A stretch of DNA of 32,665 bases from positions 4,235 through 36,899 of the forward strand of contig CAYGHK010000001.1 of NCBI GenBank assembly GCA_964349645.1. Reading direction: 5' to 3'. A program made the position numbers and the translations under genes. How positions within the stretch are numbered: the first letter of the stretch is position 1; each line of letters starts with the position of its first letter. The DNA comes from an uncultured Candidatus Saccharibacteria bacterium (GTDB lineage: Bacteria; Patescibacteriota; Saccharimonadia; Saccharimonadales; Saccharimonadaceae). Shown piece by piece: positions 1,728-29,679 of this stretch. The notes under the pieces were generated by a model, which was given only the letters and a program-made list of their open reading frames with translations, ran no database searches and was not told the origin of the DNA.

Positions 1728-1730
1728 ATA

Positions 1731-3029: not shown

Positions 3030-3045
3030 ATTAAATATTATAGCT

Positions 3046-3183: not shown

Positions 3184-3431
3184 ATCCAATTACTTTATCA
3201 TATATAGGGTGAAAAACAAATATTTGTTTGCAATTTGTTGATTTTTATTTATACGATAGTTTTTCTTTTGCACATATACTAAATATGTTTCCACAGTTTT
3301 TAAAGTGTTAACTTAGACATGTGTAAAAACTCACCCCAAGCGAAGAGATGTGTGTGTCAAAGTACTTTTGGTTGTGGAAAACCCTTGGTTTGGTTTATAG
3401 TTATTGGTAGCTATTACAAAAAAATGCGACG
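3184..3431. promoter_or_regulatory. rpmH-dnaA divergent intergenic region; candidate oriC half with DnaA-box-like motifs and an AT-rich stretch
   Basis: TGTGTAAAA at 3320-3328 is the reverse complement of TTTTACACA. TGTGGAAAA at 3373-3381 has one mismatch to the TGTGGATAA consensus. GTTTCCACA lies at 3287-3295. An AT-rich tract spans 3215-3275. Confidence 0.5.
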
Positions 3432-6158: not shown

Positions 6159-6164
6159 GATACA

Positions 6165-8576: not shown

Positions 8577-11081
8577 CTAATCTTTTCTATACCAACTATA
8601 TTTTGAATCCATCGCGTCCCCCTGCCCAGCCATCGGCGACCTACCGGGCCCACCATCCGAGTCCCAGGACGCAGAGGCGAATTTTTTACTAAAACCATCA
8701 ATACTACCAACAAACATAAAGGTATGGCTGCTACTCATTGCAACATCACCCTGCTTTAAATCACTAGTGCTATTTACGGATATTTTTTTCCAATTTCTAT
8801 CTAGCCATTTCTTTTGCGCGATTGTTGTACCGGCTCCCTTTGAAAAATTTGCTCCATAGTTATATTCTGGCTCGTAGCCAGAATTTATCATTGTCAAAGT
8901 TACAAAACCGCCGCAGTCGTTTCCAGGGTATGATATTCCACCAACATACAACCCCTTTTTCCTAGCTTTGGTAACAGCACTTTTATAGGCCGGTCGCTGT
9001 TTACCAAACGGATCGCCGTGATACTCCGGCCATGCATAAGCTTTTATTGTGCCTGCGAAATCTCCGGCAACAGCACCATCGGAACAGCCATTTTCTGTCC
9101 CAGTAGTTGAACCTTTTGCTCCTAGCGCCTTTTCGATTCCCTTCCCTATGCCGTCGGCGTATTTATCTTTATTTAATCCGCTCTGCCCAACCTCGTTATA
9201 TACCCAAGGAACATCTGAAAAGAGCTGTACTATAGATATATCACCAATAGCAGGTAAACCTCTTGAGGCTGGAAAGTCTAGTCTATGAATTTGCACTCCA
9301 CCTTCTTCGGCTTTTCTTGCATCTAATATTTTTTCTGAATATTCCTTACTCTTTTTTGCTACAGCTTCGTTTGTGAAGGTCTTCTTCTTTGTGCCGGTTT
9401 TACGGTATAAGCCAACTTCCTGTGGAGTAACCCAGCCATATGAGGAAGATCCGAAGCTGCCCCCAGTTGTGTGAATACTTACAGCTATAGACGCTTTTGC
9501 TTTATTTGCTATCTTCGCTCTTTCGATAAGACCCACGCTATCTTCAGCATTTTTCTTGGTACTTTTAACTTTATAACCCTTTCCCTCAAGATAATTACGA
9601 ACTTTCTCAGAAATAGTCCAAGCGTCTTTAGTTTCCTGGCCATTGTCAGAGTCTTGTGCTTTGATGCCACTTTCTGGGTCGGTTTCATTTACAGTACTGC
9701 CCGAATGGCCGGGATCTAGGACAACGTCTACAGATCCACCACCAGCCGTGTCTTCACAGACACATGCGGAAGTTCCGCTTGATTCACTTGTTGGTGTAGT
9801 TGCAGCTCCTCCAGTTGATGGTACGCCCGCTCCAAACTTTCTCAAAGTAGCTTTTGCTTTTTTAGTTCGATCGTCTATAGTTGCTGTTCTACTGAGGGGT
9901 CTTTCATATCCAAAATACGGACTTCCATTTACGCTACCCTGGAATGCTTCGGTGGCTTGTTTTACGGTAGTGGTTGACTTTAGTTGACTACCGGCGACAG
10001 GCTCCTTGAGTATTCCTTTGTTATTTAAGCCATCGTCTATTGTCTCAAGTTGTACTTGTAGGTCGTTTGGGTCTTTGCCGGCTGCTTTTGTTGGGTTTAT
10101 AAATTTACCCCCTTTTGTCCACTGTGCAATACCCCAGCCCGCATCACCACTGAAACTTTCAGCTGGGGTTTTAGTTCCAATAGGCGTACCCTGCTTTCTT
10201 TGTGGTTCTACGTTGGATTCAACAAGTAGGTTACCTACAATTCCGGCAGACTGTTCTTTTGTCCAACCTTTAGATACGAAAAAGTTAAAAGCTTTCTCGG
10301 CGTTTTCACTACCTTCTAATCCAGCACCCTCGCTGTCTGGATTACCGCATATGCAAGGGTTGCTTCCATCGCCCTCATCTTCACTAGCCTGTGCCCCTTC
10401 GCTGATATTAGTAAGTGGCGTCTCTTTTGTAACCGGTCTTATTTTTACATTGTCTATTCCGTCCTTGAAGTTAAGTATTTCCGCAACTTCCCACCATAGA
10501 TCTATCTCTGGTTTTTGGTCACCTCCAGCTCCAACATCTGCCTTTTGGGCAACAACACTCTTACCTTTGTATGTAATTTCTAGCTTAGTTTTATTTGGTA
10601 AATCACCAAGTGCGCTGTAGTCGCCACTCCCGGGACTAATACTTAACTCCGCAAAAGAGGACGTTCCAGGAAGTTTATTGTCGGTGTTGCCTACACCAGT
10701 ATCATCAGAACTACCATTACTGCCGTCGGGGTCTTGAATGTTATTCGTAGGTACGAACTTTCCATTTTTGTAAGTTCCGCCATATATACTAGCTTTTGCT
10801 GTGCGCCCTCCAGCGGGTACATTACCAACGCCTCTTGGTGAATACTCTACACTACCACCCGAAGGGCTTGCACTTGCATCGGGTTCTTCTGTGCCACCAC
10901 CCGTTGGATCGCAAGCATTTGGATCGTAGAACTGTACTTCAGAGTCGGAATAAAAGTCTGAAACAGCTTGCACGGGTAGTTCAGATATTAAGGTGATACA
11001 AAATACTAACAACACTCCTGCACGCAGTGCTTTTGAGAAAGTAAAAAATCTATTCTTTAGCAATGTGTACATGAGGTCCAC
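8577..11081 (-). CDS. Secreted or anchored multi-domain peptidoglycan hydrolase: RlpA/DPBB-like, phage-tail-lysozyme-like, MurNAc-L-Ala amidase (Amidase_3-like) and NlpC/P60-like domains
   Basis: 834 aa with an N-terminal hydrophobic anchor (ALRAGVLLVFCITLISELPVQA).
- DPBB-like: ASIYGGTY...LPGTSSFAEL...KLEITYKGKSVVAQKADVGAGG...EIDLWWEVAEIL.
- Lysozyme-like: FFVSKGWTKEQSAGIVGNLLVESNVEP...GWGIAQWT.
- Amidase_3-like: VVLDPGHSG...LIERAKIANKAKASIAVSIHT.
- NlpC/P60-like: GNDCGGFV...LKQGDVAMSSSHTFMFVG.
Domain calls rest on motif recall only. Confidence 0.72.
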   Translation of the reverse strand: MDLMYTLLKNRFFTFSKALRAGVLLVFCITLISELPVQAVSDFYSDSEVQFYDPNACDPTGGGTEEPDASASPSGGSVEYSPRGVGNVPAGGRTAKASIYGGTYKNGKFVPTNNIQDPDGSNGSSDDTGVGNTDNKLPGTSSFAELSISPGSGDYSALGDLPNKTKLEITYKGKSVVAQKADVGAGGDQKPEIDLWWEVAEILNFKDGIDNVKIRPVTKETPLTNISEGAQASEDEGDGSNPCICGNPDSEGAGLEGSENAEKAFNFFVSKGWTKEQSAGIVGNLLVESNVEPQRKQGTPIGTKTPAESFSGDAGWGIAQWTKGGKFINPTKAAGKDPNDLQVQLETIDDGLNNKGILKEPVAGSQLKSTTTVKQATEAFQGSVNGSPYFGYERPLSRTATIDDRTKKAKATLRKFGAGVPSTGGAATTPTSESSGTSACVCEDTAGGGSVDVVLDPGHSGSTVNETDPESGIKAQDSDNGQETKDAWTISEKVRNYLEGKGYKVKSTKKNAEDSVGLIERAKIANKAKASIAVSIHTTGGSFGSSSYGWVTPQEVGLYRKTGTKKKTFTNEAVAKKSKEYSEKILDARKAEEGGVQIHRLDFPASRGLPAIGDISIVQLFSDVPWVYNEVGQSGLNKDKYADGIGKGIEKALGAKGSTTGTENGCSDGAVAGDFAGTIKAYAWPEYHGDPFGKQRPAYKSAVTKARKKGLYVGGISYPGNDCGGFVTLTMINSGYEPEYNYGANFSKGAGTTIAQKKWLDRNWKKISVNSTSDLKQGDVAMSSSHTFMFVGSIDGFSKKFASASWDSDGGPGRSPMAGQGDAMDSKYSWYRKD

Positions 11082-13975: not shown

Positions 13976-15871
13976 CTACTTTATTTCACCTTCACTTAAA
14001 TATCCTTTGCGAATCTCAACATCTTGATTTTCTACAGCCTGGTCGGCAAGCTCAGCTGCTCTTTTAGCATCAAGCTCCGCTTGGGGGTTGGTAGTAACAA
14101 GTTTGTGTTCAGTTGGGCTTGGAACAATTTGAATATGTACATGATTTTGACCTGCGAAGAAAAGACCTTGGCCTACCGGGAAGTTGTTTAGTCGTTTTCT
14201 TTCTTCTTCGGTAAGTTTAAATACATCAGCCAGAACATCTACTGCGCTTGAGCTTTGTTTTAGTAGTAACTGCATGCTGGCGTTAGCAACAATAGCACGA
14301 CCCATTTTACTAGCCATAAAATCTTCTACGTCTTGGCTAATTGTAGTGAGTCCAAGGTAATATTTTCGTGCACGTTTAGCCAAACTAAAAATAAAGTTTG
14401 CAGAGTCTTCGTACTTCATCAGTTGCCATGCCTCATCAACAATTAGCATTCGTTTCTTTTTGTCAGTTCGAGTTTTGTTCCAGATATGGTTCAAAATGAT
14501 ATACATTGCAGTTGGACGCAACTCGTCCTCGAGAGTTTGAATATTAAACACAACCATATTGTTGTTTATATCAACATTACTTTGTTGAGAGAAGATGCCG
14601 GCAAATGTTCCTGTAGTATATTTTCGTAGCCTTTGAGCCAATTCTGGGCCAGAGCCGCCCATATGGAGCAACGTGTCATAAAGGTCGTTGATTGTAGGCG
14701 GCGTCGACTGGTGAGTAAGCGGATCACTCGTAATGCCGACGCGCGCATAAGTATCGATCAACGCTTGATCGAGGTCAGCTTCTTGGTTCGGCGTAAGTGG
14801 AACGGCTTGGTTGCTTATCATTAGTTTGATAAGTCCATGTAGGGTTATTAGGTTTGCTCGTAGTGAATCATCAGCATCTTCTTCGTCGATAACCCTCGGT
14901 AAGTCAAAAGGATTTATGCGAATATCAGAGTTTAGACTCATTTGTACGTAGCTACCACCCACTGCTTCACATAGTTTTTGGTATTCATTTTCAGGGTCGA
15001 TGATTATGACTTCCGTACCGGTCATCATAGAGCGTATCGCTTCAAGCTTCACAGCAAAGGATTTACCAGCACCGGATTTTGCAAAAACAACCATATTTGC
15101 GTTTTCGAGAGAGAATCTATCAAAAATAACCAAACCGTTGTTGTGCATGTTTATTCCGTATAGGACGCCTTTTTCTTGAGTAAGATCGGCAGATGTAAAT
15201 GGAAAGCTAGTTGAAATTGCCCCAGTGTTCATGTTGTGACGAATCTGCAATTGGTCTGAAAGTTGAGGTGCTGTACTTTGCACACCCTGCTCTTGTTGGC
15301 TGGAGGCGACTTTGCTAAAAATAAGCTGTTGACCAAGTGTACTTTCAACTTTGTGCTGCATGAAGTCCATTTCATCTAAGCTGTCGGCGTATAAAGTAAT
15401 GTATAGACCGTATCGGAAGAAACGCTCAGCACCAAGTTGCAGCTGATCACGTAGCTCTTCGGCGTCGCTAATTGCAGCTTCAAGACCCGGGTCGCGAACC
15501 TTACCTTTTTCGCTATTTATGCTCTGCGATGCTTCAAGTTGAGTTACTTTTCGACGCAAGTTTTTCATAACAATTTCCGACTCAACTGGGTAAATAAACA
15601 TAGCTATATCCACTACTTCATCGGCATTTATGATCGAGCTAAGCCAGCCAGTATATAGCTGACGAGGATATCCGTACACATAAAGCGTTCGGCCGTATTT
15701 ATTGCCAAGTCGGAAGTATGAGCTATTAATTTCTAAACTACTTGGAGCAATGAGGTCACGAAGGGTTCGAACTCCTTTTAAAAACTCTTGTTCGATTTCG
15801 GCCTGTTCCCTAGCACGTTGCTGGGCGGCTATGTCGATAGCATCTTGCTTTTTACCGCCAAAAATACCCAT
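13976..15871 (-). CDS. virB4: VirB4/TrbE/PrgJ-family T4SS ATPase
   Basis: 631 aa. The N-domain pattern is LIAPSSLEINSSYFRLGNKYGRTLYVYGYPRQLYTGWLSSII. Walker A is FAKSGAGKSF and Walker B is RMLIVDEAWQL, followed by GLTTISQDVEDF. Its start overlaps the upstream stop by 1 nt (TAATG). Confidence 0.88.
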   Translation of the reverse strand: MGIFGGKKQDAIDIAAQQRAREQAEIEQEFLKGVRTLRDLIAPSSLEINSSYFRLGNKYGRTLYVYGYPRQLYTGWLSSIINADEVVDIAMFIYPVESEIVMKNLRRKVTQLEASQSINSEKGKVRDPGLEAAISDAEELRDQLQLGAERFFRYGLYITLYADSLDEMDFMQHKVESTLGQQLIFSKVASSQQEQGVQSTAPQLSDQLQIRHNMNTGAISTSFPFTSADLTQEKGVLYGINMHNNGLVIFDRFSLENANMVVFAKSGAGKSFAVKLEAIRSMMTGTEVIIIDPENEYQKLCEAVGGSYVQMSLNSDIRINPFDLPRVIDEEDADDSLRANLITLHGLIKLMISNQAVPLTPNQEADLDQALIDTYARVGITSDPLTHQSTPPTINDLYDTLLHMGGSGPELAQRLRKYTTGTFAGIFSQQSNVDINNNMVVFNIQTLEDELRPTAMYIILNHIWNKTRTDKKKRMLIVDEAWQLMKYEDSANFIFSLAKRARKYYLGLTTISQDVEDFMASKMGRAIVANASMQLLLKQSSSAVDVLADVFKLTEEERKRLNNFPVGQGLFFAGQNHVHIQIVPSPTEHKLVTTNPQAELDAKRAAELADQAVENQDVEIRKGYLSEGEIK

Positions 15872-16698
15872 TAGTTGCTCTCCTGGCTAAGGTTTGGCCG
15901 TGGCGCTTCGCCCGCACCCTTTTGGATATAGGTGTTGGTGATGTTGTTAAAATCCCCTAAAGGTTGGCGAACGGCAGTATCTGGGTTGTAGAAGTTGTAG
16001 TAGAGCTCGCCAAGCTCCTTGGTGTTGAGTTGCACCGAACGAACTCCCATTTGGAATAAACCACTCAAAACTGTGTTGATGCGGTTTTGTAACTCATCTT
16101 TGGCTTTGTCATATGCTTCTTGGTTGATTTTAATATTCACCTGTTGCTGAGGTTTAAATAGGTTTGAAAATAGGTTTTTACTCGAAGCAACTGCGCTATC
16201 AAGATCTCCAGCTGGGTAATATGGTACAACCAGGAAAAAACTCTTGTCCATAATATTCGCTTCTTGTGCAAGCTGGTCGATAAAGTCTATGTAATTGTCC
16301 ATCAGTACTCCTAAGAGCATGTTGTCTTGACCTCTACGCATTTTATCGAGTCTGTCGAGGTATGGTGCGATATCTACTCTTTGTGAGCGAATTAATATTT
16401 GTATCGGAAAGGTCAAAGAATTTAAAAAACTTTGGTAGGCGTACTCAACACCTTCACGCTCTCGTGAGCTCATGAGGTCAAAGTTGATTGACTTACAGGT
16501 TATAACCGCACGAAAACTACCGTCGCTCATGATCACCATATTTTCACGTATTTCAGATATCAAGAGTGCGTTTTGTGCACTGTTTGGATTTTTCTTTGCT
16601 GCTGCAGGTGCAGGTTGTTGAGGGTTTTTCCCGGCAGCTTGAGGTGCTCCAGGTTGTCCTGGGGCTTTAGGTTGGGTATTATTTTTATTTGGCTGCAT
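15871..16698 (-). CDS. Hypothetical protein, VirB4 N-terminal-domain-like with no NTPase motifs
   Basis: 275 aa with a Pro/Gln/Ala-rich disordered N-terminus. The segment ISEIRENMVIMSDGSFRAVITCKSINFDLMSSREREGVEYAYQSFLNSLTFPIQILIRSQRVD resembles the start of VirB4/TrbE N-domains. There is no Walker A. It is translationally coupled to virB4. Confidence 0.4.
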   Translation of the reverse strand: MQPNKNNTQPKAPGQPGAPQAAGKNPQQPAPAAAKKNPNSAQNALLISEIRENMVIMSDGSFRAVITCKSINFDLMSSREREGVEYAYQSFLNSLTFPIQILIRSQRVDIAPYLDRLDKMRRGQDNMLLGVLMDNYIDFIDQLAQEANIMDKSFFLVVPYYPAGDLDSAVASSKNLFSNLFKPQQQVNIKINQEAYDKAKDELQNRINTVLSGLFQMGVRSVQLNTKELGELYYNFYNPDTAVRQPLGDFNNITNTYIQKGAGEAPRPNLSQESN

Positions 16699-16741: not shown

Positions 16742-17680
16742 CTAATGCAACTTAATCTCCACCTCTTCTTCGGCTTGTTTTTCTTCTATACGCTTCGCTT
16801 GCTTGGCGAGCGTACTCACCTTATAGCCTTGACTGTTGTCTACGAGGTTTATTATATCAGGAGACGGCGTGTTATCGCTAGTGCTTTGAGCAGTTTGGTC
16901 AACACTTGTCGTTTCTGGTTTAGAATCTTCGGGATCGACCACTTCTCCGACTGGATGTATAACTGTTTGGTGAATTGACGAAGGGTATGGGTCAAACTTT
17001 ACTTTATCGAGTATTTTTTTTGCTTCTTTTTCGAGTTCGTCATCTGTTACGTCAGGCTTTTTCGGCTGAGCCTTCTTGGCTGGTTTTGCAGCTTGCTCCA
17101 TTCGATCTATCGCCGCTTTTTGGCTGATAGTTTTTTGTTCTTTTATAAGTTTATCGAAAGAGGTTTCTTCTAAAATATCTTCCATATTGTCAACTTCGGC
17201 AACCACATTTTCGGCCAAACTAACATTTCCAGTACTGTTAACATCAGGGTTAAACACGCCCCTCGCAGCCCAACCTCGTGTGTCCATAATTTGCGAAAGC
17301 CTGTCTAGCCTGTCCAGTGCTTCGTCTTGACTGATGTCTTTTGTTCTTTGCTCCTCTATAACGTGCGGCGCGGTTATCTCAACAGTTGAAATAACGCCGT
17401 CGGGCATCCACAAGCGTTTTTTGGACTTTAAGTTGTATTGTAATATCGCAGCCAGGTAGGTTTCGGTCGGTTGATCTTTGCGTAAAGGTAGGGCTATTGC
17501 AGTAAAAAATATTATAAATGGCAATGGAATCAATATAAGCCCAACAAATATTTTACTGAGTATAAATGCCACAAAACAAGCAAATGCCACTATAATAAGG
17601 TAAATAAACTGACGAAAGCCAAAAGGCCCTATCAGCTTATCTTCTGCTTCAACATCCTGGGGTACTTTGTAGACTGCCAT
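16742..17680 (-). CDS. PrgI/VirB3-like T4SS membrane protein with a long charged C-terminal extension
   Basis: MAVYKVPQDVEAEDKLIGPFGFRQFIYLIIVAFACFVAFIL plus a second TM helix fits the PrgI-family N-terminus. I prefer the ATG at 17680. The track starts at 17719, adding 13 residues. Confidence 0.6.
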   Translation of the reverse strand: MAVYKVPQDVEAEDKLIGPFGFRQFIYLIIVAFACFVAFILSKIFVGLILIPLPFIIFFTAIALPLRKDQPTETYLAAILQYNLKSKKRLWMPDGVISTVEITAPHVIEEQRTKDISQDEALDRLDRLSQIMDTRGWAARGVFNPDVNSTGNVSLAENVVAEVDNMEDILEETSFDKLIKEQKTISQKAAIDRMEQAAKPAKKAQPKKPDVTDDELEKEAKKILDKVKFDPYPSSIHQTVIHPVGEVVDPEDSKPETTSVDQTAQSTSDNTPSPDIINLVDNSQGYKVSTLAKQAKRIEEKQAEEEVEIKLH

Positions 17681-17787
17681 GCTTATGTTTATTATATAGG
17701 ATTTCTCAGTTAAAATCACAAATCCAAGAGATTATATATTTACAAATATTCATTTTTAGTTTATTGTAATTTACAAAAGGAGATATT

Positions 17788-18468: not shown

Positions 18469-18509
18469 ACTTGCAAAATTATACTTTTTATGCTAATATA
18501 ACTGATGAA

Positions 18510-19937: not shown

Positions 19938-21268
19938 GATTTCCTACTAATCCACTTGCTGTAAGCCATCATCTCAATACCAAGTTGTGAATAATCAACT
20001 CTATAGAATCCATCACTATCAACTATAACTGCATTAGGGTGGCTACTAGCTACATCCTGGGCCATTACACCGACGTATTCGGTATCTTCCCAATTGTATC
20101 TAAATCTATAAAAAGGGATACCGCTAATCGTACCTAATCGTTGCACATCACGCTTTAGACGCCTATCTGATTGCTGGTAAGGTGCAGCCCGGTAGTCTGC
20201 AGCATCCTGCACTACTACATCGTGGAACCCAGGAGGCATTGCATCAATTTTTGCCTGAGTAAATGGTTTTTCAGCAGCAGCAGCAGCAAGAATTTGCCTT
20301 GCATGAATCCCCACATCATCACCCGGCCCAGCACTTGCTGCACGCTGAACGTACTGTTGGAATGATCTTTCGTCTAGATCACCAACATTAGTTGAGTCAA
20401 CCTTCTTGAAGGTCGCTTCGAAGCTTTTTGGACCACCACTTGTATCTCCTGCTGTTTCAACAAAGCTGCTGGTAATATCTGGCCTTGTTTTTTCAAGTGC
20501 ATCATAATGATCTTTACCAAGATGGGCTGCAAATGCTTGAGCTTCAGCAGAGCCGCTTTGCATTTGTGATGCAAAATCTCCAACCATATCCCTGCCGGGT
20601 GCGCCATTTTGCATTGCAAGATTTGCAATTGCTGCTCGTTGTTCATCAGTTTGGGCTTGAGCAAACTGATCGCGCAAATAATTATCTCTTCCTGTACCGC
20701 CCCCTGCATACCTTCCTCCAGGATCAGACTGGTAAGCTAGCATAGCACTTTTTATTCGAAGATCTCTTGCCTCTAGATTAAGTTTTGCTGGCTCCATTTC
20801 TTCAATTTCGCGCTTTAACCTCATCTTATCTACATTCAAGCCAACTCGTACCCCAGCGCCTCGATCAGCGCCAACGCCAACGTATCTATCTGCATTTTCT
20901 CCCATATCACTTATAACATCGTCCTCTAGGAGTCGTTTAGCTTCAGCCTCTCTATTCTGCCGTTGTGCATCCGTACGAGTAGCGCGGCCGCCTGCCCAGC
21001 GACGAAAGCGGTTTCTGCGGTTGTCTGTTATGAGGTTGCCGTTTTGATCAAGGCCGGCAGTAGTGCGCCTTGCGGATGTTTCCGTTTTGGCGAGCTGTGA
21101 TCTTTTGCCAGCATCTTCTTTCATGCCGCCTGTTAATTTGTTTCCCAAGTTTTGACCTACTCCGTACACTTTACCTAACATTGAGTTTGATGATTTTAGT
21201 AAAGCAGGTATTGCAAATAGTGGCAATGCCAGTATGACGAGTTTGAGTAAATAATTTATGACATCCAT
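19934..21268 (-). CDS. Membrane-anchored protein with a C-terminal intramolecular chaperone auto-processing domain (peptidase S74, tail-fibre/endosialidase type)
   Basis: 444 aa with the N-terminal TM helix LLKLVILALPLFAIPALL. The C-terminus reads SDRRLKRDVQRLGTISGIPFYRFRYNWEDTEYVGVMAQDVASSHPNAVIVDSDGFYRVDYSQLGIEMM. This closely follows the S74 pattern SDxRLK...GxxAQ(E/D)V...P..V......vdY..l. Confidence 0.7.
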   Translation of the reverse strand: MDVINYLLKLVILALPLFAIPALLKSSNSMLGKVYGVGQNLGNKLTGGMKEDAGKRSQLAKTETSARRTTAGLDQNGNLITDNRRNRFRRWAGGRATRTDAQRQNREAEAKRLLEDDVISDMGENADRYVGVGADRGAGVRVGLNVDKMRLKREIEEMEPAKLNLEARDLRIKSAMLAYQSDPGGRYAGGGTGRDNYLRDQFAQAQTDEQRAAIANLAMQNGAPGRDMVGDFASQMQSGSAEAQAFAAHLGKDHYDALEKTRPDITSSFVETAGDTSGGPKSFEATFKKVDSTNVGDLDERSFQQYVQRAASAGPGDDVGIHARQILAAAAAEKPFTQAKIDAMPPGFHDVVVQDAADYRAAPYQQSDRRLKRDVQRLGTISGIPFYRFRYNWEDTEYVGVMAQDVASSHPNAVIVDSDGFYRVDYSQLGIEMMAYSKWISRKS

Positions 21269-21296: not shown

Positions 21297-22859
21297 TTAG
21301 ATTAAACTCGCTGCTAAAATTGATGCGCCAAATACTACCATTAGCATAGGAAATATTATCAGTTGTTGAGTAAATAAGCTCCACCATTTTTTGAAATATT
21401 GGTCAGTATTTGGCAACAGCCAAGCGGCGAATGCAAGTGGAGATACAAGTACTAAGCCAAGCAAGATTACTTGGCGAGCAATCAACACCAGCATGGTTGC
21501 AAAGATGGATATCAAAGCAGCAAGCAATAACGGAACGGCGAGCCATAGTAGGGCGGTTGCGCCAATACTTGCCGCCGCTACTCCACCAGCCAGCAGGCCT
21601 CCGCCAATAACGGTTCCAGCTGCTACATCACCACCAGTAGAGAAGAAGTTGACTCCCCCACTGCCACCGCCGACTGCTTCATTTATTTGTGCACTTATGC
21701 TTGTGTCGCCACCACCCGCACCAATCATGAAGCCAACAATTGAGGTACCGGCTATGTTGCTGACGTCTATTAGGAATGCACATATATAGAACGATAAGTT
21801 TATAAATATTGCTCCCATGACAAGGCGAGGTAACATTCGTTTTATGCCATAGTTTGATAGCCCTACAGAGGTTGATTGTGAAAATACAATGACCATAAAC
21901 ACAATTATTAGAAGAATATTCGCCATGCTAACAAAGGCACTATGTATAGCCTGAATTTTACCCCCGTCATCTTTTTCGGCAAGTATTCGGAAGGTCAGCA
22001 TGCTTTCGATGATGCTACCCGCCCCCTGTATAGCTGATGCGAAACCATCGATTATCGGACAAAGCACCCACCCTAGAGCACCACCCTTACAACTATCAAC
22101 GTCCCCAGCAGCGCCTCCGGCACCCGTACCACCAGCCGCTTCAATAATTGCTTTTATTTCATTTTGTTCTGCTTCGGACATTTTGTAATAATTACGGGTA
22201 TTAACCGAGAATGACTCTCTAGGAAGTCCGTTATTACACTCCGGAGATAGGATTGAACTAATCTTTTCTCCCTTCGAGCTACCACCTAGATGAGGATTTC
22301 TATCATCATCGTTCAAGTTAGCAAAACTAGTATTTTCATCCTTTTCGTGAACAACACTATCCGCGGCTCCAGCTTCACCTATTTTTGTAATTTTTGTAAT
22401 GCCTGCTGTTGTGTCGTAGTTGTCGCCACCTTGAAGTGCATTCCAGTCGTTAAACTTGTAGCCCATTACATAGTCTATTTTAAAATAAGGCCTGGTGGAG
22501 GGTTCGGTTAAGGATAAAGTAGTGCCCGAACAATATACTTGTGTGACAGCAAAGTATTCGAGCTTGTCATCGGGATCGCCTGCTCCATGCTGGTTAAGTT
22601 GTTGATTGATTTCAGATGTAAATGAAAATATCGTCCCATCACCGAAGAGGCCGCCTTTTGCGACAACTTTTATCATGTCACCAACTTCTTCTTGTTTTTT
22701 GCCATCATCAAAAATGGTTTTCAGTTTGTTTTTGTCAGCATCGTCATAAAAGAGCGCGAGGTTAGTTGCTCCCACTGCTTGGGTAGCTCCGCTTGTAATA
22801 ATAGCTAAAACAACAACCAAGAATATTCCTGCCCAGCTATGTCTAAAGAAACGTTTCAT
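21297..22859 (-). CDS. VirB6/TrbL-like polytopic T4SS channel protein with a large N-terminal extracytoplasmic domain
   Basis: 520 aa. It has a signal peptide (AGIFLVVVLAIITSGATQAVGA) and a soluble region of about 290 aa. The C-terminal half has multiple TM helices and Gly-rich loops, including LVLVSPLAFAAWLLPNTDQYFKKWWSLFTQQLIIFP, which resembles the TrbL/VirB6 core. Confidence 0.65.
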   Translation of the reverse strand: MKRFFRHSWAGIFLVVVLAIITSGATQAVGATNLALFYDDADKNKLKTIFDDGKKQEEVGDMIKVVAKGGLFGDGTIFSFTSEINQQLNQHGAGDPDDKLEYFAVTQVYCSGTTLSLTEPSTRPYFKIDYVMGYKFNDWNALQGGDNYDTTAGITKITKIGEAGAADSVVHEKDENTSFANLNDDDRNPHLGGSSKGEKISSILSPECNNGLPRESFSVNTRNYYKMSEAEQNEIKAIIEAAGGTGAGGAAGDVDSCKGGALGWVLCPIIDGFASAIQGAGSIIESMLTFRILAEKDDGGKIQAIHSAFVSMANILLIIVFMVIVFSQSTSVGLSNYGIKRMLPRLVMGAIFINLSFYICAFLIDVSNIAGTSIVGFMIGAGGGDTSISAQINEAVGGGSGGVNFFSTGGDVAAGTVIGGGLLAGGVAAASIGATALLWLAVPLLLAALISIFATMLVLIARQVILLGLVLVSPLAFAAWLLPNTDQYFKKWWSLFTQQLIIFPMLMVVFGASILAASLI

Positions 22860-22903
22860 ACTGTCAATCAGTATACCTCAAGGACAAGCACAAGCTCAAT
22901 GAT

Positions 22904-22932
22904 TTGCACTTATCGGTATAAAAAGGCATAAT
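22904..22932 (+). promoter_or_regulatory. Candidate sigma70-type promoter for the pilin operon (TTGCAC, 17-nt spacer, CATAAT)
   Basis: TTGCAC lies at 22904-22909 and CATAAT at 22927-22932, inside the 82-bp divergent intergenic region. The -10 element ends 9 nt before the ATG at 22942, implying a very short or absent leader. This is a pattern match only. Confidence 0.3.
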
Positions 22933-22941: not shown

Positions 22942-23649
22942 ATGAAAAAGTACTTATTGATAGCTTTTGTATTTGGACTGCAGATCTCTGCGCTTGTTGT
23001 GCTTACGGCGTCACCAAAAGCGTTGGCGGCTTATTCTAGCGATAAGGGTACGGAAACTTGCCAAAGCCTTTCGCCGCCAGATGACGATAACTTAAAGGCA
23101 TGTGAATATGGCTACAAAGTAGGATACGAAGGAGCTAAAGGTGGTAAATGTTTTGCTCATGTAAAAAAAGTGATGAAAGACAAATATCACAAAAACATAA
23201 ATACAGTCGAGCAGTTAAAAGCAAATGCTGTTGCTGCTCCGATGTACAGTATTTGTGGTAAAGGAAAAATTAAAGGAGCTGAGCAAAAAGCTGCAGATGA
23301 TGCCGCAAAAGAAAGTGCAGTTGCCAATGCAAAAAACACCTGCTCGGGAGTGCCGACATTTTTTGACTTTGGGTGTAATGCAGCCGGCAGCGACAAAGAA
23401 AAAAGTGGCAAAGCAAACCCAATAAGCAGGATATTATTTACAGTTATTTCTTGGCTAACAGGTCTTGTTACACTTGCAGCTATAGGTGGCGTTATATACG
23501 GTGGCATATTGTACACAAGTGCAGGTGACAATAGTAGTCAAACCCAAAAAGGTATAAGCTTTATATTCAATGCTGTTCTCGGCTTGCTTTTATGGATAAG
23601 TGCCTACGCAATAATTAACTTCCTTGTGCCTGGAGGGCTATTCACATGA
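22942..23649 (+). CDS. Pilin paralogue P1: VirB2/TrbC-like module fused to a Cys-rich N-terminal domain of about 150 aa
   Basis: 235 aa. The signal peptide ends in ALAA, and the mature N-domain has six Cys. The C-terminal module reads LVTLAAIGGVIYGGILYTSAGDNSSQTQKGISFIFNAVLGLLLWISAYAIINFLV. Confidence 0.7.
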   Translation: MKKYLLIAFVFGLQISALVVLTASPKALAAYSSDKGTETCQSLSPPDDDNLKACEYGYKVGYEGAKGGKCFAHVKKVMKDKYHKNINTVEQLKANAVAAPMYSICGKGKIKGAEQKAADDAAKESAVANAKNTCSGVPTFFDFGCNAAGSDKEKSGKANPISRILFTVISWLTGLVTLAAIGGVIYGGILYTSAGDNSSQTQKGISFIFNAVLGLLLWISAYAIINFLVPGGLFT

Positions 23650-24083
23650 GTAGGAAATTAGCAGGTATTTTGACTCTAGTATTGTTGTTTGCGGGAATTG
23701 TCAGCACTACTTCGTTGAGTCAAACAGCAACTGCTGCTGAATGTAAAAACGAAGTTTCATTGCTACCCGGAGCAAAGCCATGGTATTCGGGCTTGTGTAA
23801 AATGGATGGCGCAAACAAAACAAACGATATAGAGCTCACTACTCCACAAGAATCTGGCACAAAAATAGCGCTTAATATTTTAAATATAATCATGGTTTTG
23901 GCCGGTTATGTTGCTGTTGCTTATGTAATGTGGGGAGGGTTTAACTACCTGACCGCAACTGGAGACTCTGGAAAAACCGCTAGTGCCAAAAGAACTATTA
24001 CAAATGCGTTAATTGGGTTACTTATTTCACTTTCGGCTGTGGCGATAATATATTTTATAGGAGGCGTATATGGTATACCGTAG
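23646..24083 (+). CDS. Pilin paralogue P2 (VirB2/TrbC-like)
   Basis: 145 aa. The signal peptide ends in ATAA and the variable region has 2 Cys. The module reads VLAGYVAVAYVMWGGFNYLTATGDSGKTASAKRTITNALIGLLISLSAVAIIYF. ATGA overlap with P1. Confidence 0.72.
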   Translation: MSRKLAGILTLVLLFAGIVSTTSLSQTATAAECKNEVSLLPGAKPWYSGLCKMDGANKTNDIELTTPQESGTKIALNILNIIMVLAGYVAVAYVMWGGFNYLTATGDSGKTASAKRTITNALIGLLISLSAVAIIYFIGGVYGIP

Positions 24084-24477
24084 AGTTTTATTTTTGTGCG
24101 TAGCGCTATTTGCGGTTGTTGGTTTGTCTTTTTTTGCAAACAACGCTCACGTTGCGGCAGCTCCAGACGAAGAGCCACCAAAGCCAGCCATTGACGTTGC
24201 CGACCCCGGTAAACTGTCTGTCGATGAAGGCGAAGTCGGCATTTTAAAAGCCGACAGCGGGACTATCGTTACAAATACACTTAATGCTGTTTACGGAATC
24301 AGTGCAGTTATTGCAGTAATTGCCATTATTGCTGCTGGAATAATGTATACAATTTCCGATGGCGATCCTGGCAAAATTAGTACAGCGAAAAATGCGATTA
24401 TATATGCGACGGTAGGTTTGGTGATTATAGGCTCGGCGTTTATAATTACAGGTATAGTCCAAAGAATAGGAACATAA
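24070..24477 (+). CDS. Pilin paralogue P3 (VirB2/TrbC-like)
   Basis: 135 aa. The signal peptide ends in VAAA and the mature variable region has no Cys. The module reads AVIAVIAIIAAGIMYTISDGDPGKISTAKNAIIYATVGLVIIGSAFIITG. An AGGAGG RBS sits 5 nt upstream, inside the end of P2. Confidence 0.72.
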   Translation: MVYRRVLFLCVALFAVVGLSFFANNAHVAAAPDEEPPKPAIDVADPGKLSVDEGEVGILKADSGTIVTNTLNAVYGISAVIAVIAIIAAGIMYTISDGDPGKISTAKNAIIYATVGLVIIGSAFIITGIVQRIGT

Positions 24478-24479
24478 AT

Positions 24480-24854
24480 ATGCAAAGAATCAAAAAAATT
24501 TCCTTTATAGCCTCAATAGCGGTGCTATTACTTGCAGTAGTCAGCTTGCTCTCTTCGGATATTGCTATGGCCGCACTACCAGGCTGTGGGACAAGTAATA
24601 CACAAATATGTACTGCAAGCGACGACCTGCTTGGAGGTATATTGAAAGACGTTATAAATGTAATGCTTTACCTTGCTGGAGCGATTGCGGTAATCATGGT
24701 GGTGGTTGGCGGTATTCGCTATATTACTAGCGACGGTGACCCTGGTGCGGCTAGTAAAGCAAAAAGTACGATTATATATGCCTTGGTTGGCCTGGTTGTA
24801 GCAATAATGAGTTTTGGTATAGTAAACTTTGTGTTAGATAGGATAAAAGCATGA
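24480..24854 (+). CDS. Pilin paralogue P4 (VirB2/TrbC-like)
   Basis: 124 aa. The signal peptide ends in AMAA and the variable region has 2 Cys. The module reads LAGAIAVIMVVVGGIRYITSDGDPGAASKAKSTIIYALVGLVVAIMSFGIVNFVL. Confidence 0.75.
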   Translation: MQRIKKISFIASIAVLLLAVVSLLSSDIAMAALPGCGTSNTQICTASDDLLGGILKDVINVMLYLAGAIAVIMVVVGGIRYITSDGDPGAASKAKSTIIYALVGLVVAIMSFGIVNFVLDRIKA

Positions 24855-25243
24855 CATTAAAAAGAATAAAAAATACACTACTATCAATTTCAGCAATTGT
24901 TTTTCTTAGCGGCGTAGGTACTGTTTGTATTACTCCCCCATCAGCTTTGGCGGACACAAAAACAGAAGCACAAACAGCTGTCGACGATCTCAGCGGTACT
25001 CATGTTGATGGGACAAACAAAATAAAAACTACCATAAGAGACATAATCAACATCTTGCTGTTTTTGATCGGTATGATTGCGGTTATCATGATTGTTATTG
25101 CAGGCTTTAGGTTTGTAACAAGCAACGGTGACTCCAATACTGTATCTTCGGCCAAAAATACAATTATTTACGCTGTTATTGGTATCGTAGTCGCAGTCAT
25201 GGCCTACGCCATAGTGAACTTTATATTAGATAATATAGCTTAA
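24851..25243 (+). CDS. Pilin paralogue P5 (VirB2/TrbC-like)
   Basis: 130 aa. The signal peptide ends in ALA and the mature variable region has no Cys. The module reads LIGMIAVIMIVIAGFRFVTSNGDSNTVSSAKNTIIYAVIGIVVAVMAYAIVNFIL. ATGA overlap with P4. Confidence 0.75.
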   Translation: MTLKRIKNTLLSISAIVFLSGVGTVCITPPSALADTKTEAQTAVDDLSGTHVDGTNKIKTTIRDIINILLFLIGMIAVIMIVIAGFRFVTSNGDSNTVSSAKNTIIYAVIGIVVAVMAYAIVNFILDNIA

Positions 25244-25245
25244 AT

Positions 25246-25683
25246 ATGTTTCGTATTTTTATTTTACTTACACTTCTTGTAGGCACAGTAGCAAGTCTCG
25301 CGCAGCCTGTATCTGTGTTTGCGCTTGATGGCAATGATGAGACCAGTTCTAGAGAAGCGCTCAAGCAAGTTGGAGATAATCCTGAAGAAGAGTGTAAAGC
25401 TAGAGGGGGCAAGCTCAATGCTCAAGATGAATGTGTCGATAGTAACGGCAAGAGTCTTAATGAGGTGACATATACACTTCGCAATGTTGTGAACCTTCTC
25501 CTATATGTAGCAGGTATTATTGCCGTAGTTATAATTGTTATTGCAGGCTTTAGGTTCGTAACAAGCAACGGCGATGCCGCACAGGTTTCAAAGGCCAAAA
25601 ACACTATAATATATGCGCTTGTAGGCCTTGTAGTTGCGGTTATGTCATACGCTATAGTGAACTTTATTTTGGAAAATATATAA
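25246..25683 (+). CDS. Pilin paralogue P6 (VirB2/TrbC-like)
   Basis: 145 aa with a signal peptide and 2 Cys in the variable region. The module reads VAGIIAVVIIVIAGFRFVTSNGDAAQVSKAKNTIIYALVGLVVAVMSYAIVNFIL. Confidence 0.75.
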   Translation: MFRIFILLTLLVGTVASLAQPVSVFALDGNDETSSREALKQVGDNPEEECKARGGKLNAQDECVDSNGKSLNEVTYTLRNVVNLLLYVAGIIAVVIIVIAGFRFVTSNGDAAQVSKAKNTIIYALVGLVVAVMSYAIVNFILENI

Positions 25684-25700
25684 GACAAATGAGGAATAAT

Positions 25701-26165
25701 ATGAAAAACATAAAGAAAATATTAGGATCGGCACTACTTGTTTTGGGTGTTGGCTTGCTGTTTGTGCCGGCAACAAGCCAGGCAAAAGTCACCATAGATG
25801 ATGCTAACGCAGAAAACCACAAAGTAGCCTGTGATAAAAACGGCGGAACGGTAGATGGAAATGGCAACTGTAGCGAGGGCGGCTCAGACATTGCCAGTAT
25901 ATTTCGCGCTGTAACGAATACGATGTTGTTTTTGGTAGGTGCTGTTGCGGTTATCATGCTAATTGTTGGTGGATTTCGTTATGTCACAAGTAATGGCGAC
26001 CAAAACTCTGTTACGGCTGCCAAAAACACTATAATGTACGCACTGATTGGTATAGTAGTAGCTTTCCTAGCATTTGCGGCTGTTAACTTTGTCACCAACC
26101 AGTTGGAAAACGCAAATACGTCCGGAGAGTCAGGCTATATACAACAAGCAAGTATTTTGGTATAA
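25701..26165 (+). CDS. Pilin paralogue P7 (VirB2/TrbC-like)
   Basis: The track starts it at ATG 25689. I prefer the ATG at 25701 (MKNIKKILG...), 5 nt after GAGGA. The signal peptide ends in SQA and the variable region has 2 Cys. The module reads LVGAVAVIMLIVGGFRYVTSNGDQNSVTAAKNTIMYALIGIVVAFLAFAAVNFVT. Confidence 0.75.
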   Translation: MKNIKKILGSALLVLGVGLLFVPATSQAKVTIDDANAENHKVACDKNGGTVDGNGNCSEGGSDIASIFRAVTNTMLFLVGAVAVIMLIVGGFRYVTSNGDQNSVTAAKNTIMYALIGIVVAFLAFAAVNFVTNQLENANTSGESGYIQQASILV

Positions 26166-26203
26166 CTAAAGCATACATCTTATAAACATAAGGAGAATAC
26201 AAA

Positions 26204-26662
26204 ATGAAAATATCAAACTTAAAAACAAAACTACAGATGTTTGCTGCGACAAATTTCGCAGTGCTAACTCTAGTTGTTGGTGGAGTACTAGGCCTGTCTG
26301 CAACAGCCTTGGCTGCTGAGCAAACCTGTACTATTGAGTCTGGTAACAGTACGGCAGTTAATGATCTTACTAACCCACTCAGTGATGGTAGCGCCTGTGC
26401 TAAGGGTAATGGTCAAGGAGATAACTTGAACGACATCTTCAAAACAGTGGCTAACATTCTACTCTTTGTAGTTGGTGCTGTTGCGGTTATCATGCTTATC
26501 ATTGGTGGTCTGCGCTACGTTACAAGTAATGGCGATCAGAACGCTGTAACAGGAGCAAAAAATACTATTATGTATGCCATCATTGGTATAGTAGTAGCCT
26601 TCCTGGCGTTTGCGGCTGTTAACTTCGTGACTTCACAGCTTGAAGCAGCGAATACAAACTAG
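26204..26662 (+). CDS. Pilin paralogue P8 (VirB2/TrbC-like)
   Basis: 152 aa with an AAGGAG RBS upstream. The signal peptide ends in ALAA and the variable region has 2 Cys. The module reads VVGAVAVIMLIIGGLRYVTSNGDQNAVTGAKNTIMYAIIGIVVAFLAFAAVNFVT and is nearly identical to P7. Confidence 0.75.
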   Translation: MKISNLKTKLQMFAATNFAVLTLVVGGVLGLSATALAAEQTCTIESGNSTAVNDLTNPLSDGSACAKGNGQGDNLNDIFKTVANILLFVVGAVAVIMLIIGGLRYVTSNGDQNAVTGAKNTIMYAIIGIVVAFLAFAAVNFVTSQLEAANTN

Positions 26663-26723: not shown

Positions 26724-27191
26724 TTAGTTGATTTGGATCTTGCGAGCTTGCTCGGCTTTTACCTTAGTAAAGGTAATTGTTAGAACGCCATCTTTTAGAA
26801 CTGCTTCAACTTCATCTTCTTTTACTGCTACAGGTAGTGCAAGTGTTCGGCTGAACTCACCCCAATAGCACTCTTGTATGTGCCACTGAGTTGCTTCAGA
26901 ATCGTCGCCACTTGAAAGCGTACCACTGATAGTCAAGATACCATCTGAAATACTTACATCAAGGTCTTGCTTGTTAACGCCGGCTGTTCGGGCTTTAACA
27001 ACGAGCTTGTGCTCTGATTCGTAAACATCAACTGCTAGTTGGCCTGGTACAGCTGAGCTGTCTTCTTCCCAGGTTTCCTCAACAATCGTTGCAGATCCTT
27101 CAGTAGGTTGATCGTCCTCTTCATTTAAAAATGCGGCTGCTAATTCATCTTCGATCAGCAAGTCGTCATCGCTAGTAGTTTTTTTTGCCAT
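26724..27191 (-). CDS. Small heat-shock protein, Hsp20/alpha-crystallin family
   Basis: 155 aa. LAVDVYESEHKLVVKARTAGVNKQDLDVSISDGILTISG...FSRTLALPVAVKEDEVEAVLKDGVLTITFTK is a typical alpha-crystallin domain. A GGAGGAG RBS is present. Confidence 0.88.
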   Translation of the reverse strand: MAKKTTSDDDLLIEDELAAAFLNEEDDQPTEGSATIVEETWEEDSSAVPGQLAVDVYESEHKLVVKARTAGVNKQDLDVSISDGILTISGTLSSGDDSEATQWHIQECYWGEFSRTLALPVAVKEDEVEAVLKDGVLTITFTKVKAEQARKIQIN

Positions 27192-27301
27192 AGGTCTCCT
27201 CCACTTATTGTCGTTTTATAAACTCGCTTGACAATCCATGTCCTAGGAATGATTATAACTAATACATACTTAAAAATCCAGCGAAATAAGTAAAAATTAC
27301 A

Positions 27302-27964
27302 ATGTTTGATAGCTTGTTGCAAATTATTGCCCCACACCACTGTTATTCTTGCCAAAATATAGGGTCTATTTTGTGCAGCAGTTGTATATATAACATCGTA
27401 AATGAAAGCCAAAACGTATGTATAGAGTGCTTTAAGCCAAGTTCGCGAGGTATCTGTAGTGTATGTAACCCACCATTCTCGAAAGCCTGGTTTGTTAGCT
27501 TGCGTGAAGGAGAGTTGGCTACCGTAATAGACGATTTTAAATGGTCGCGTACATATGATGCTTATAAACCCCTGGCGCTGCTTTTAGACAAACATTTGCC
27601 AGTATTACCCACGAATACCGTTATAGCACCTATTCCAACTATATCGAAACACAAAAGAATACGAGGCTATGATCACATAGATATTGTATGTGCTGAATTT
27701 GCCAAACAAAGAAACCTTACGAAACGAAATTTATTAAAACGAAAAAATAACTTTGTTCAACACAAGGCAACTAAAAATGAACGAAAAATGCAGGCAGATA
27801 AAGCATTTGAATGTGACGAAGCGCTAGACCCCAACGTGCCGTATCTGATAATTGATGATATTGTCACAACCGGCTCAACAATCAAAGCAGCGACCCGGGT
27901 TCTCAAAGGGGCTGGTGCCAAAGAGGTGTGGGTCGCTGCTATTGCTCGGCAGCCACTCAACTAG
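27302..27964 (+). CDS. comFC: ComF-family protein (ComFC-like phosphoribosyltransferase with N-terminal zinc ribbons)
   Basis: 220 aa. Two CxxC pairs are present (CYSCQ...CSSC and CIEC...CSVC). The PRTase motif is YLIIDDIVTTGSTIKAATRVLKGAGAKEVWVAAIAR. Confidence 0.82.
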   Translation: MFDSLLQIIAPHHCYSCQNIGSILCSSCIYNIVNESQNVCIECFKPSSRGICSVCNPPFSKAWFVSLREGELATVIDDFKWSRTYDAYKPLALLLDKHLPVLPTNTVIAPIPTISKHKRIRGYDHIDIVCAEFAKQRNLTKRNLLKRKNNFVQHKATKNERKMQADKAFECDEALDPNVPYLIIDDIVTTGSTIKAATRVLKGAGAKEVWVAAIARQPLN

Positions 27965-27980: not shown

Positions 27981-28520
27981 TTATTTTTTTATGTCGTAAG
28001 CTAGAGCTAGAAGCATTGGTCCTGTGATCAATGCGTACAGACCAAGGATCCATACAAATGCAACACCTGCTGATGCTGGTTGCATTAGCAGAGTAACTCC
28101 AACTATTACAGACAATATGCCTGTAATAACGAGGATAGTTTTGCTGGTTGCTGCGTCTTCTTCGAAAATAGCTGAAAATACATCAACTATACCGCGTGCA
28201 ATTAGGATTAATCCTACGATTAGCACGAATGCTGCGAAAGCGATGCCTGCGTGTCGTAGCAAGTACACACCTACACCTATTTCAGCAACGCTTAACAGTA
28301 CTGTTAACACGCGGGATAGAAAAGAAACTTTTCCGTTACCGATGTTAATTAGTCCCACCACGAGTCCCACCACACCACTTGCAAGCAAGAAGGCGCTAAC
28401 TAGATACACAAGTGTAACCAGTGTCAGAGCTGGCCAGAAAACAGCCGCCAGTCCGAACAGGATTGCTACAATCCCACGTAGAGCTAGAACGCCCCACAAA
28501 TCTTTTGATATTTGACTCAT
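27981..28520 (-). CDS. DUF308/HdeD-like integral membrane protein
   Basis: 179 aa with six hydrophobic helices. The N-terminus LALRGIVAILFGLAAVFWPALTLVTLVYLVSAFLLASGV fits the HdeD/DUF308 repeat. Confidence 0.7.
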   Translation of the reverse strand: MSQISKDLWGVLALRGIVAILFGLAAVFWPALTLVTLVYLVSAFLLASGVVGLVVGLINIGNGKVSFLSRVLTVLLSVAEIGVGVYLLRHAGIAFAAFVLIVGLILIARGIVDVFSAIFEEDAATSKTILVITGILSVIVGVTLLMQPASAGVAFVWILGLYALITGPMLLALAYDIKK

Positions 28521-29602: not shown

Positions 29603-29679
29603 TGGTACGCCCGGCAAGATTCGAACTTGCGACACCTGGTTCCGAAGACCAGTGCTCTAATCCACTGAGCTACGGGCGC
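29603..29679 (-). tRNA. tRNA-Arg (anticodon UCG) with encoded CCA
   Basis: The minus-strand sequence is GCGCCCGTAGCTCAGTGGATTAGAGCACTGGTCTTCGGAACCAGGTGTCGCAAGTTCGAATCTTGCCGGGCGTACCA. It folds by hand into a cloverleaf. Acceptor stem 7 bp (G1-U72 wobble); D stem GCTC/GAGC. Anticodon stem CTGGT/ACCAG with loop CTTCGGA; T stem GCAAG/CTTGC with loop TTCGAAT. Confidence 0.9.

Follow-up and report, generated by a model that had tools for sequence, protein, structure and literature searches.

Eight tandem VirB2-like pilin genes of a Saccharibacterium are probably the subunit set of a single type IV secretion assembly

Small proteins with Sec signal peptides, encoded in tandem beside genes of a type IV secretion system (T4SS), have been described from the genomes of Saccharibacteria. 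A conserved array of four to six of them beside VirB4 and VirB6 was reported by McLean 2020, who likened them to the subunits of pertussis toxin, and the array genes are termed putative effectors in the transcriptome papers on TM7x. The proteins were later re-annotated as pilin subunits of an essential T4SS cluster in S. epibionticum (Wang 2023), where each of the six tandem genes SEML1_0014-0019 is scored essential, as is the Hsp20 gene SEML1_0020, but not the ComFC-like gene or the lone minus-strand pilin gene SEML1_0024 (Table S1 of that study). In the survey of Quiñonero-Coronel 2025, 1,948 assemblies had VirB2-like pilins and there were 441 arrays of 2 to 11 genes, with a within-array identity of 25% on average and 54% at most; the authors also noted dnaA proximity, TrsD, PrgI and VirB6, and suggested adaptation to different host strains. 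Such arrays are also described in a 2025 FEMS review. The literature on these T4SSs has speculated on a pilus conduit, and the function of the Saccharibacteria T4SS has been called completely unknown. Here we describe eight such genes at positions 22942-26662 of the window, a stretch of 32,665 nucleotides from an uncultured Candidatus Saccharibacteria bacterium (assembly GCA_964349645.1, contig CAYGHK010000001.1, positions 4,235 to 36,899), and compare them with the described systems.

VirB2-type pilins are membrane hairpins with both the N- and the C-terminus outside; the loop between the two helices lines the lumen of the pilus and the termini face outward. In the TrbC/VirB2 proteins of diderm T4SSs, such as Agrobacterium VirB2 and RP4 TrbC, a signal peptide precedes two hydrophobic helices, which a short loop of polar and basic character connects. 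Such pilins polymerise into an extracellular pilus that contains bound phospholipid, and their maturation by signal peptidase is accompanied by C-terminal trimming and cyclisation (TrbC, VirB2) or by acetylation (TraA). The array proteins share this plan, but their host is a monoderm, a head of 16-129 amino acids (aa) lies between signal peptide and helix 1, and they are many paralogues where the diderm systems have one gene. Several tandem VirB2-family genes with variable exposed parts are also present per T4SS locus in Bartonella (Trw, with TrwL) and Anaplasma/Ehrlichia (VirB2), as cited in Quiñonero-Coronel 2025, and are thought to give surface variation for interactions with host cells and the immune system. 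The classes of the present array, in contrast, are ancient, keep their positions and are under purifying selection. A further likeness is to the Mbov_0395 (CDS15) family of Mycoplasma integrative and conjugative elements (ICEs), which is of monoderm type like the array, is represented by the model NF045849 and has been described in a review as VirB3-like. By its gene name Mbov_0395 is close to the ICE VirB4 gene Mbov_0397, whereas a multi-class array is found here. The Mycoplasma ICE is a DNA-conjugation system with a VirD4-type coupling protein (review), whereas neither a coupling protein nor a relaxase was found among the window open reading frames (ORFs) scanned.

The array adds one more case to a feature that is already published and extends through the class Saccharimonadia; it is not the unusual arrangement that a sequence-only reading of the window had taken it for. 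As in the published arrays, at least two tandem pilin genes lie near virB4 and within-array identity is low. The genes resemble SEML1_0014-0019 and the 'Sec-secreted array' of N. lyticus TM7x in matching PF18895 with or without PF04956, in their tandem plus-strand order divergent from a VirB6-like gene, in the Hsp20 and ComFC-like genes downstream, in the split VirB4/TrsD and PrgI partners and in the dnaA-proximal location. They differ from most in number, eight instead of the usual six, owing to the two lineage-specific duplications that gave P6 and P7. The VirB6-like protein also differs in length, with 520 aa here and 1088 aa in S. epibionticum ML1. We consider it probable that the eight genes are the VirB2-like subunit set of a chromosomal, origin-proximal, monoderm-type T4SS, in which the proteins form one heteromeric assembly with a distinct place for each class.

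The eight co-oriented ORFs, P1 to P8, are tightly packed on the plus strand. P1 (22942..23649, 235 aa) is a class-1 pilin with a helical head of 129 aa that contains six Cys, and its C-terminus reads NFLVPGGLFT. P2 (23646..24083, 145 aa) is of class 2 and has two Cys in its head; its start and the stop of P1 overlap by 4 nt. The class-3 pilin P3 (24070..24477, 135 aa) has an acidic, Pro-rich head of 34 aa without Cys, and P4 (24480..24854, 124 aa) a short head of 16 aa with one Cys pair. P5 (24851..25243, 130 aa) belongs to class 5, is nearest to the family consensus and has no Cys in its head. P6 (25246..25683, 145 aa) is a lineage-specific duplicate of class 5 that carries a new two-Cys head, and P7 (25689..26165, 158 aa) a lineage-specific duplicate of the last class, also with two Cys in the head. 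The last-class pilin itself is P8 (26204..26662, 152 aa), again with a two-Cys head. The same eight consecutive ORFs were listed in the sequence-only reading, where the 154 aa given for P7 correspond to its second ATG; 158 aa are counted from the first (25689). The gaps from P1 to P8 are -4, -14, 2, -4, 2, 5 and 38 nt. The Shine-Dalgarno sequence of P3 (AGGAGG) is the strongest, and that of P8 (AAGGAG) is strong.

Each copy starts with a basic and hydrophobic N-terminus that ends in an AxA-type site, judged by eye and from hydropathy, which bears out the signal peptides described in the sequence-only reading. The putative cleavage sites from P1 to P8 are ALA↓A, ATA↓A, VAA↓A, AMA↓A, ALA↓D, VFA↓L, SQA↓K and ALA↓A. 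Hydropathy also indicates two C-terminal helices of transmembrane length, joined by a short loop, in all eight. Heads are specific to each paralogue and only 4-23% identical in pairwise comparison, as expected from the earlier remark that this segment differs almost completely between copies, while the hairpin modules are 21-67% identical. The modules of P5 and P6 share 64% identity and their heads only 11%; the modules of P7 and P8 share 67%. The Cys counts of the sequence-only reading were correct for every copy, and the sole Cys of P3 and of P5 sits in the signal peptide. Two of its motif statements were too broad. The loop motif [YF][VIL]T[SAI]xGD, ascribed to all copies, is present in strict form in six of the eight, P1 having LYTSAGD and P3 YTISDGD, and the ending NF[IV], ascribed to six copies, is found in five (P4-P8), with NFL in P1.

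In an alignment of 22 class-1 sequences, a conserved C-x-G-V-x-T-F-F-D-F-G-C loop with several invariant positions stands just before helix 1, and the C-terminus VPGGLF is invariant. The loop or the C-terminus could be a processing or recognition site.

Membership in the broad VirB2/TrbC superfamily is supported by profile matches and not by comparison of folds. The Pfam T4SS_pilin model PF18895 (cut-off 26.6 bits) matches all eight proteins with E-values of 1.6e-4 to 1.4e-13. Seven lie at 41.2-51.1 bits (P2 44.1, P3 41.2, P4 48.0, P5 51.1, P7 41.9 and P8 44.5 among them) and P1, at 22.1 bits, is below the cut-off. The family profile of P1 nevertheless aligns to the pilin profile with an hhalign probability of 97.2% and an E-value of 3.6e-11. 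A profile built from database homologues matches the eight with E-values of 2.5e-10 to 9.6e-53, and the similarity is far beyond chance. The TrbC/VirB2 model PF04956 (cut-off 27.9 bits) is exceeded by P5 (30.9 bits), P6 (30.6) and P8 (28.2) and just missed by P3 (26.0) and P4 (26.1); P1, P2 and P7 have no match to it. Weak Pfam matches to many unrelated membrane families are present beside the pilin matches, and no toxin domain was matched in any of the eight (Pfam). In an AlphaFold2 model of P5 made with 60 homologues (mean predicted local distance difference test score, pLDDT, 77.5), helices 54-90 and 95-129 have a pLDDT above 90 and the head is poorly defined; the P1 model has a pLDDT of 65. 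With the three profile families, the modelled hairpin and the linked T4SS genes, the earlier identification of VirB2/TrbC-type pilin paralogues of one T4SS, each with its own exposed head and with a shared membrane hairpin, is upheld.

The hairpin modules of all eight also match NF045849 (E 2.4e-11 to 3.5e-5), a model of 80 positions that covers the hairpin module only. P5 (43.2 bits) and P7 (40.8) pass its equivalog cut-off of 40 bits and the other six score 23.4-37.2 bits, so that the array copies are best described as probable relatives of this family and not as its equivalogs. These matches suggest that the VirB2-like module may belong natively to T4SSs of monoderm type. In the survey of 2025, the monoderm FATA class of T4SS was regarded as devoid of such pilins.

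Among database sequences the nearest relative is Ca. Saccharibacteria bacterium RIFCSPHIGHO2_12_FULL_42 (P5 92% identical). The closest assembly, GCA_001790495, was not found in two supplementary files of Quiñonero-Coronel et al. 2025. Four contigs of a close relative have the array with the Hsp20 and ComFC-like neighbours in the same order. Three of them show all eight genes, and the fourth ends within P1. In DNA, the segments that align are about 87-91% identical, with a shorter stretch at 82.5% in the divergent region. A scan of GTDB species representatives gave 79 loci, nearly all labelled Saccharibacteria or Saccharimonadia. Among arrays clear of contig ends, tandem runs counted with the family hidden Markov model (HMM) comprise four genes in 4 loci, five in 8, six in 44, seven in 9 and eight in 3, six being the usual number. 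Of the 67 loci that extend far enough, 65 have a VirB6-like gene upstream, and wherever its strand was tabulated it is opposite to the array; Hsp20 accompanies the array in 73 and the ComFC-like gene in 68 of the 79. VirB4 was seen in only nine of the 33 loci with more than 8 kb upstream; as in S. epibionticum, it usually lies close to the limit of the 10-kb flank or outside it.

The order of the genes is kept across these species. By reciprocal best hits P1 occupies rank 1 in 59 of 61 loci, P2 rank 2 in 60 of 71, P5 rank 5 in 35 of 51 and P8 the last rank (rank 6 in 39 of 57); P4 is mostly at rank 4 (7 of 11), and P6 has such a hit in only two loci. When modules alone are compared with 50 six-gene arrays, the best match falls at rank 3 for P3 (26 of 50), at rank 5 for P6 (31 of 50) and at rank 6 for P7 (41 of 50); overall P4-P6 match mainly rank 5 and P7-P8 rank 6. 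By these module ranks and the high module identities within the P5/P6 and P7/P8 pairs, two of the eight genes are extra copies. The array therefore consists of the canonical classes and two lineage-specific duplicates with new heads, P6 from the class of P5 and P7 from that of P8. The classes themselves are ancient, with a position kept across species and a conserved head of their own.

Two more distant relatives with about 60% protein identity (L005 and L006) match all eight positions in the same order, with heads only 25-45% identical and marked by insertions and deletions. The Cys pairs of P4, P6 and P7 are in place in both, and that of P2 in L005. The P2 orthologue of L006 has two head Cys, the first of them shifted in the alignment, and the first Cys of P8 is also shifted. 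The class-3 genes of L005 (6264-7130) and L006 (1230-2003) encode proteins of 257-288 aa with a Cys-containing, Gly/Ser-rich head of about 150-190 aa, and the rank-3 protein of most six-gene arrays is almost headless (median 99 aa); the size of the rank-3 head changes readily between lineages. Many relatives (L007-L083) have an extra lone minus-strand pilin-like gene about 1.5-2 kb downstream of the array, past the Hsp20 and ComFC-like genes. It appears to be the counterpart of the non-essential SEML1_0024 and possibly of TM7x_00135 'virB2'. The window differs from them: the family HMM found no ninth pilin gene in it, and a DUF308 membrane protein is at that place (27981-28520).

The sequence-only reading proposed that copy number and the evolution of the heads be compared across relatives. 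Beside the copy numbers given above, the ratio of nonsynonymous to synonymous substitution (dN/dS) was obtained against the close relative. It is 0.06 for heads, 0.04 for hairpin modules and 0.16 for signal peptides, and 0.03 for each of the neighbouring VirB6-like and Hsp20 genes. With dN of 0.056 against 0.027, heads change about twice as fast as modules. Between close relatives the heads are thus under purifying selection. The term hypervariable, used in the sequence-only reading, holds between paralogues but not between orthologues, given this ratio and the Cys positions kept in most Cys-bearing paralogues at about 60% identity. Among 510 homologues the head contains no Cys in 192, two in 231 and four in 24, with one in 34 and three in 14. 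This strong bias to even numbers fits disulfide bonding outside the cell and lends support to the earlier suggestion of disulfide-stapled heads.

The 82-bp intergenic region between the divergent VirB6-like gene and P1 (22860..22941) has promoter-like sites on both strands, TTTGCA-18-CATAAT at 22903-22932 on the plus strand and another at 22899-22870 on the minus strand; both are consensus matches only. A scan for promoters and terminators found no convincing terminator within the array, and no sign of switching elements, internal promoters or terminators was seen there. The overlapping or near-abutting frames, the one upstream promoter-like site and the lack of an internal terminator suggest that the array is co-expressed. 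The lone upstream site is weak evidence, because such sites are rarer here than in shuffled sequence.

The array adjoins the VirB6-like gene (21297..22859, minus strand), which encodes a polytopic membrane protein of 520 aa, and lies 7 kb from VirB4. Since neither Pfam nor NCBIfam gave a match for this protein, nor for the 970-aa, 488-aa and 226-aa neighbours, the label VirB6-like rests on position, topology and the annotation of SEML1_0013, the gene at the equivalent place in S. epibionticum, as TrbL/VirB6-like by structure (Wang 2023). Farther along the minus strand are genes for a PrgI-family (VirB3-like) protein of 325 aa (16742..17719; PF12666, E 2.9e-12), a TrsD-like protein of 275 aa (15871..16698; NCBIfam TrsD, E 6.4e-9) and a VirB4-type ATPase of 631 aa (13976..15871). 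The TrsD-like protein, a free-standing VirB4 N-terminal domain, also matches the N-terminal region of VirB4 models. The ATPase scores 367 bits with a CD1110-family VirB4-like model (cut-off 325) and has Pfam TraG P-loop and AAA_10 matches; it also matches the Mycoplasma ICE VirB4 model (Mbov_0397 family), under the cut-off of that model. VirB4 is therefore split between the TrsD-like N-domain and the ATPase (13976-16698). A cell-wall hydrolase of 834 aa, VirB1-like by role (8577..11081, minus strand), combines phage-tail-lysozyme and amidase_3 domains (PF18013, E 2.6e-27; PF01520, E 1.9e-13), and the 970-aa protein, which has no assigned function, is encoded between it and VirB4 on the same strand.

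Downstream, the array converges with an Hsp20 gene (26724..27191, minus strand; PF00011, E 1.1e-19), followed by one for a ComFC-like phosphoribosyltransferase with N-terminal Cys motifs (region 26724-27964). Hsp20 might be a chaperone of the hairpin proteins. The genes at 1269-7199 mark the replication origin region; the minus strand has rnpA, yidC and jag, and the plus strand dnaA, dnaN and recF. They are less than 2 kb from the T4SS block, and this dnaA-proximal placement agrees with the published layout in Patescibacteria. No VirB5, VirB7, VirB9 or VirB10 and no TraF-type peptidase were found among the window ORFs scanned. The only RNA gene in the window is a tRNA-Arg (anticodon TCG) at 29603-29679 on the minus strand, far from the array (ARAGORN, Rfam).

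The fast-evolving part of the T4SS locus, relative to the close relative (L001), is 17693-20854. While the DNA on either side is 87-91% identical to L001, the counterparts of the 488-aa and 444-aa proteins there (507 and 361 aa) share only 63% and 57% identity with them. The C-terminus of the 444-aa protein differs and carries a Peptidase_S74 (tail-fibre/endosialidase chaperone) domain, and no counterpart of the 226-aa gene was detected in L001. If host specificity is set by any part of the locus, the pilin heads are a poorer candidate than this region.

How the array proteins would work can be outlined from the pilin architecture. Sec would insert each precursor and signal peptidase I would cut it, leaving a pool of N-out/C-out hairpins in the membrane with the short basic loop ([RK]-x-x-T-S-N-G-D...A-K) toward the cytoplasm. 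A membrane complex of VirB4, TrsD, VirB3 and VirB6 would then extract the subunits and stack them into a heteromeric pilus-like or wall-spanning conduit, its lumen lined by the loops and the disulfide-stapled heads outside. The classes would not be interchangeable; for example, large-head class 1 might serve as initiator or tip and the small-head classes as shaft, much as other filament systems have major and minor pilins. The structure would serve epibiotic contact with the host bacterium. Of the three options named in the sequence-only reading, a mixed filament, alternative filaments and antigenic diversification, the first is favoured, as one heteromeric assembly, because the classes are kept in order, selection on them is purifying and each is scored essential in a relative; antigenic diversification is disfavoured.

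Several observations weigh against this explanation. Patescibacteria have so far shown no filament composed of these proteins. The comparison with solved pilins by Foldseek, also suggested in the sequence-only reading, gave no significant match and was uninformative. For the P5 model the best PDB matches are generic helical proteins with E-values of about 1 (SipB, CnrX and ATP-synthase c subunits), with no pilin among the 50 matches listed. The P1 model has nothing significant in the PDB and no VirB5-like match for its head; the sole pilin in its list is 8dfu, the Aeropyrum pernix conjugation pilus (E 6.6, target-normalised TM-score 0.60, 71 aligned columns). A hairpin of two helices gives Foldseek too little to discriminate on, and none of the matches reached an E-value of 0.001 or better. 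Searched against PDB sequences, the family profile gave only a de novo designed protein at E 1.1, and with hhalign its probability against a single Agrobacterium VirB2 sequence was 1%; one VirB2 sequence is too weak a template, for which the Pfam TrbC model is the better test. The name of PF18895 was itself assigned by inference. The per-gene essentiality from transposon insertion sequencing may be partly polar within the operon. Only half of the array genes are raised in stable symbiosis in the TM7x transcriptomes, so regulation may not be strictly uniform. Finally, the order and stoichiometry of subunits in the assembly are pure inference.

The strongest alternative, which we nevertheless regard as unlikely, is that the hairpins belong to the inner-membrane complex of the T4SS, embedded in the membrane or forming a stalk, and act like the VirB3-like or CDS15-type proteins of Mycoplasma ICEs, with no extended pilus and with heads that serve as accessory domains facing the periplasm or wall. 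The matches of all eight to a family of the wall-less Mollicutes that has been called VirB3-like point this way, as do the general lack of pili in Gram-positive T4SSs (literature) and the fact that neither an observed pilus nor a Foldseek pilin match speaks for a filament. The locus, however, already has a separate PrgI/VirB3 gene, and TrbC/VirB2 is above its cut-off in three copies. At least six conserved classes with cleavable signal peptides and disulfide-type heads would also be hard to explain if the proteins were purely membrane-embedded.

More doubtful still is a set of alternative or antigenically diversifying pilins, which would give different filaments for each host strain or help in evading host defences, as proposed for TrwL and Anaplasma VirB2. 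Heads that are unrelated between paralogues and change at about twice the module rate, with large insertions and deletions over longer distances as in the P3 head, would suit such a repertoire. So would the new heads taken by the P6 and P7 duplicates and the host-strain adaptation suggested by Quiñonero-Coronel 2025. The diversifying or relaxed evolution of exposed parts that characterizes antigenically variable VirB2 arrays was, however, not found: head dN/dS is low and orthology is positional, the rank of the classes being kept across the 79 species loci. Overlapping frames with no sign of switching elements or internal promoters and terminators likewise speak against it, and the six S. epibionticum copies, each scored essential, are therefore not redundant.

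It is very improbable that the proteins are soluble effectors or toxin subunits, exported first by Sec and then by the T4SS in the manner of pertussis toxin S1-S5 and Ptl, as in the reading of McLean 2020. That reading has in its favour a signal peptide on every copy, the adjacent T4SS genes and the wording of the TM7x transcriptome papers, but the soluble subunits and toxin folds of such an array are not what is found: all eight have two long C-terminal hydrophobic helices that match pilin profiles and are unfit for a soluble toxin, similarity to Ptx S1 amounts to just 11% identity (McLean 2020), and later structure-based annotation reclassified the proteins as pilins. That these are generic small membrane proteins beside a T4SS by coincidence is hardly credible and effectively refuted, for although helical hairpins carry little information and match unrelated membrane families weakly, the family E-values reach 1e-13, the synteny with a VirB6-like gene recurs in 65 of 67 loci, and the array and its neighbouring T4SS genes are scored essential in S. 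epibionticum.

Within the favoured explanation of one heteromeric assembly, a more specific version is possible and is put forward only tentatively. The roughly six classes would be obligate, non-interchangeable parts from which a monoderm builds a single ordered heteromer of VirB2 type, a filament or a conduit, with large-head class 1 as the tip in contact with the host. A lone hairpin gene like that of the Mollicutes ICEs would have given rise to the set by expansion, and it would not have been borrowed from diderm T4SSs.

The window adds no new kind of system, and the comparative results narrow the hypotheses about a known one. In the one Saccharibacterium that can be manipulated genetically, the T4SS and its pilin genes are scored as essential for growth as an epibiont. 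Because of the positional orthology, the purifying selection on heads, the even numbers of head Cys and the link to the Mycoplasma ICE hairpin, the paralogues behave as fixed parts of one assembly and not as a repertoire of variable antigens. Two subunits are singled out, large-head class 1 and class 5, which resembles the consensus. If the ordered heteromeric filament is real, it would be the first multi-subunit VirB2-type pilus and a device by which Saccharibacteria draw on their host.

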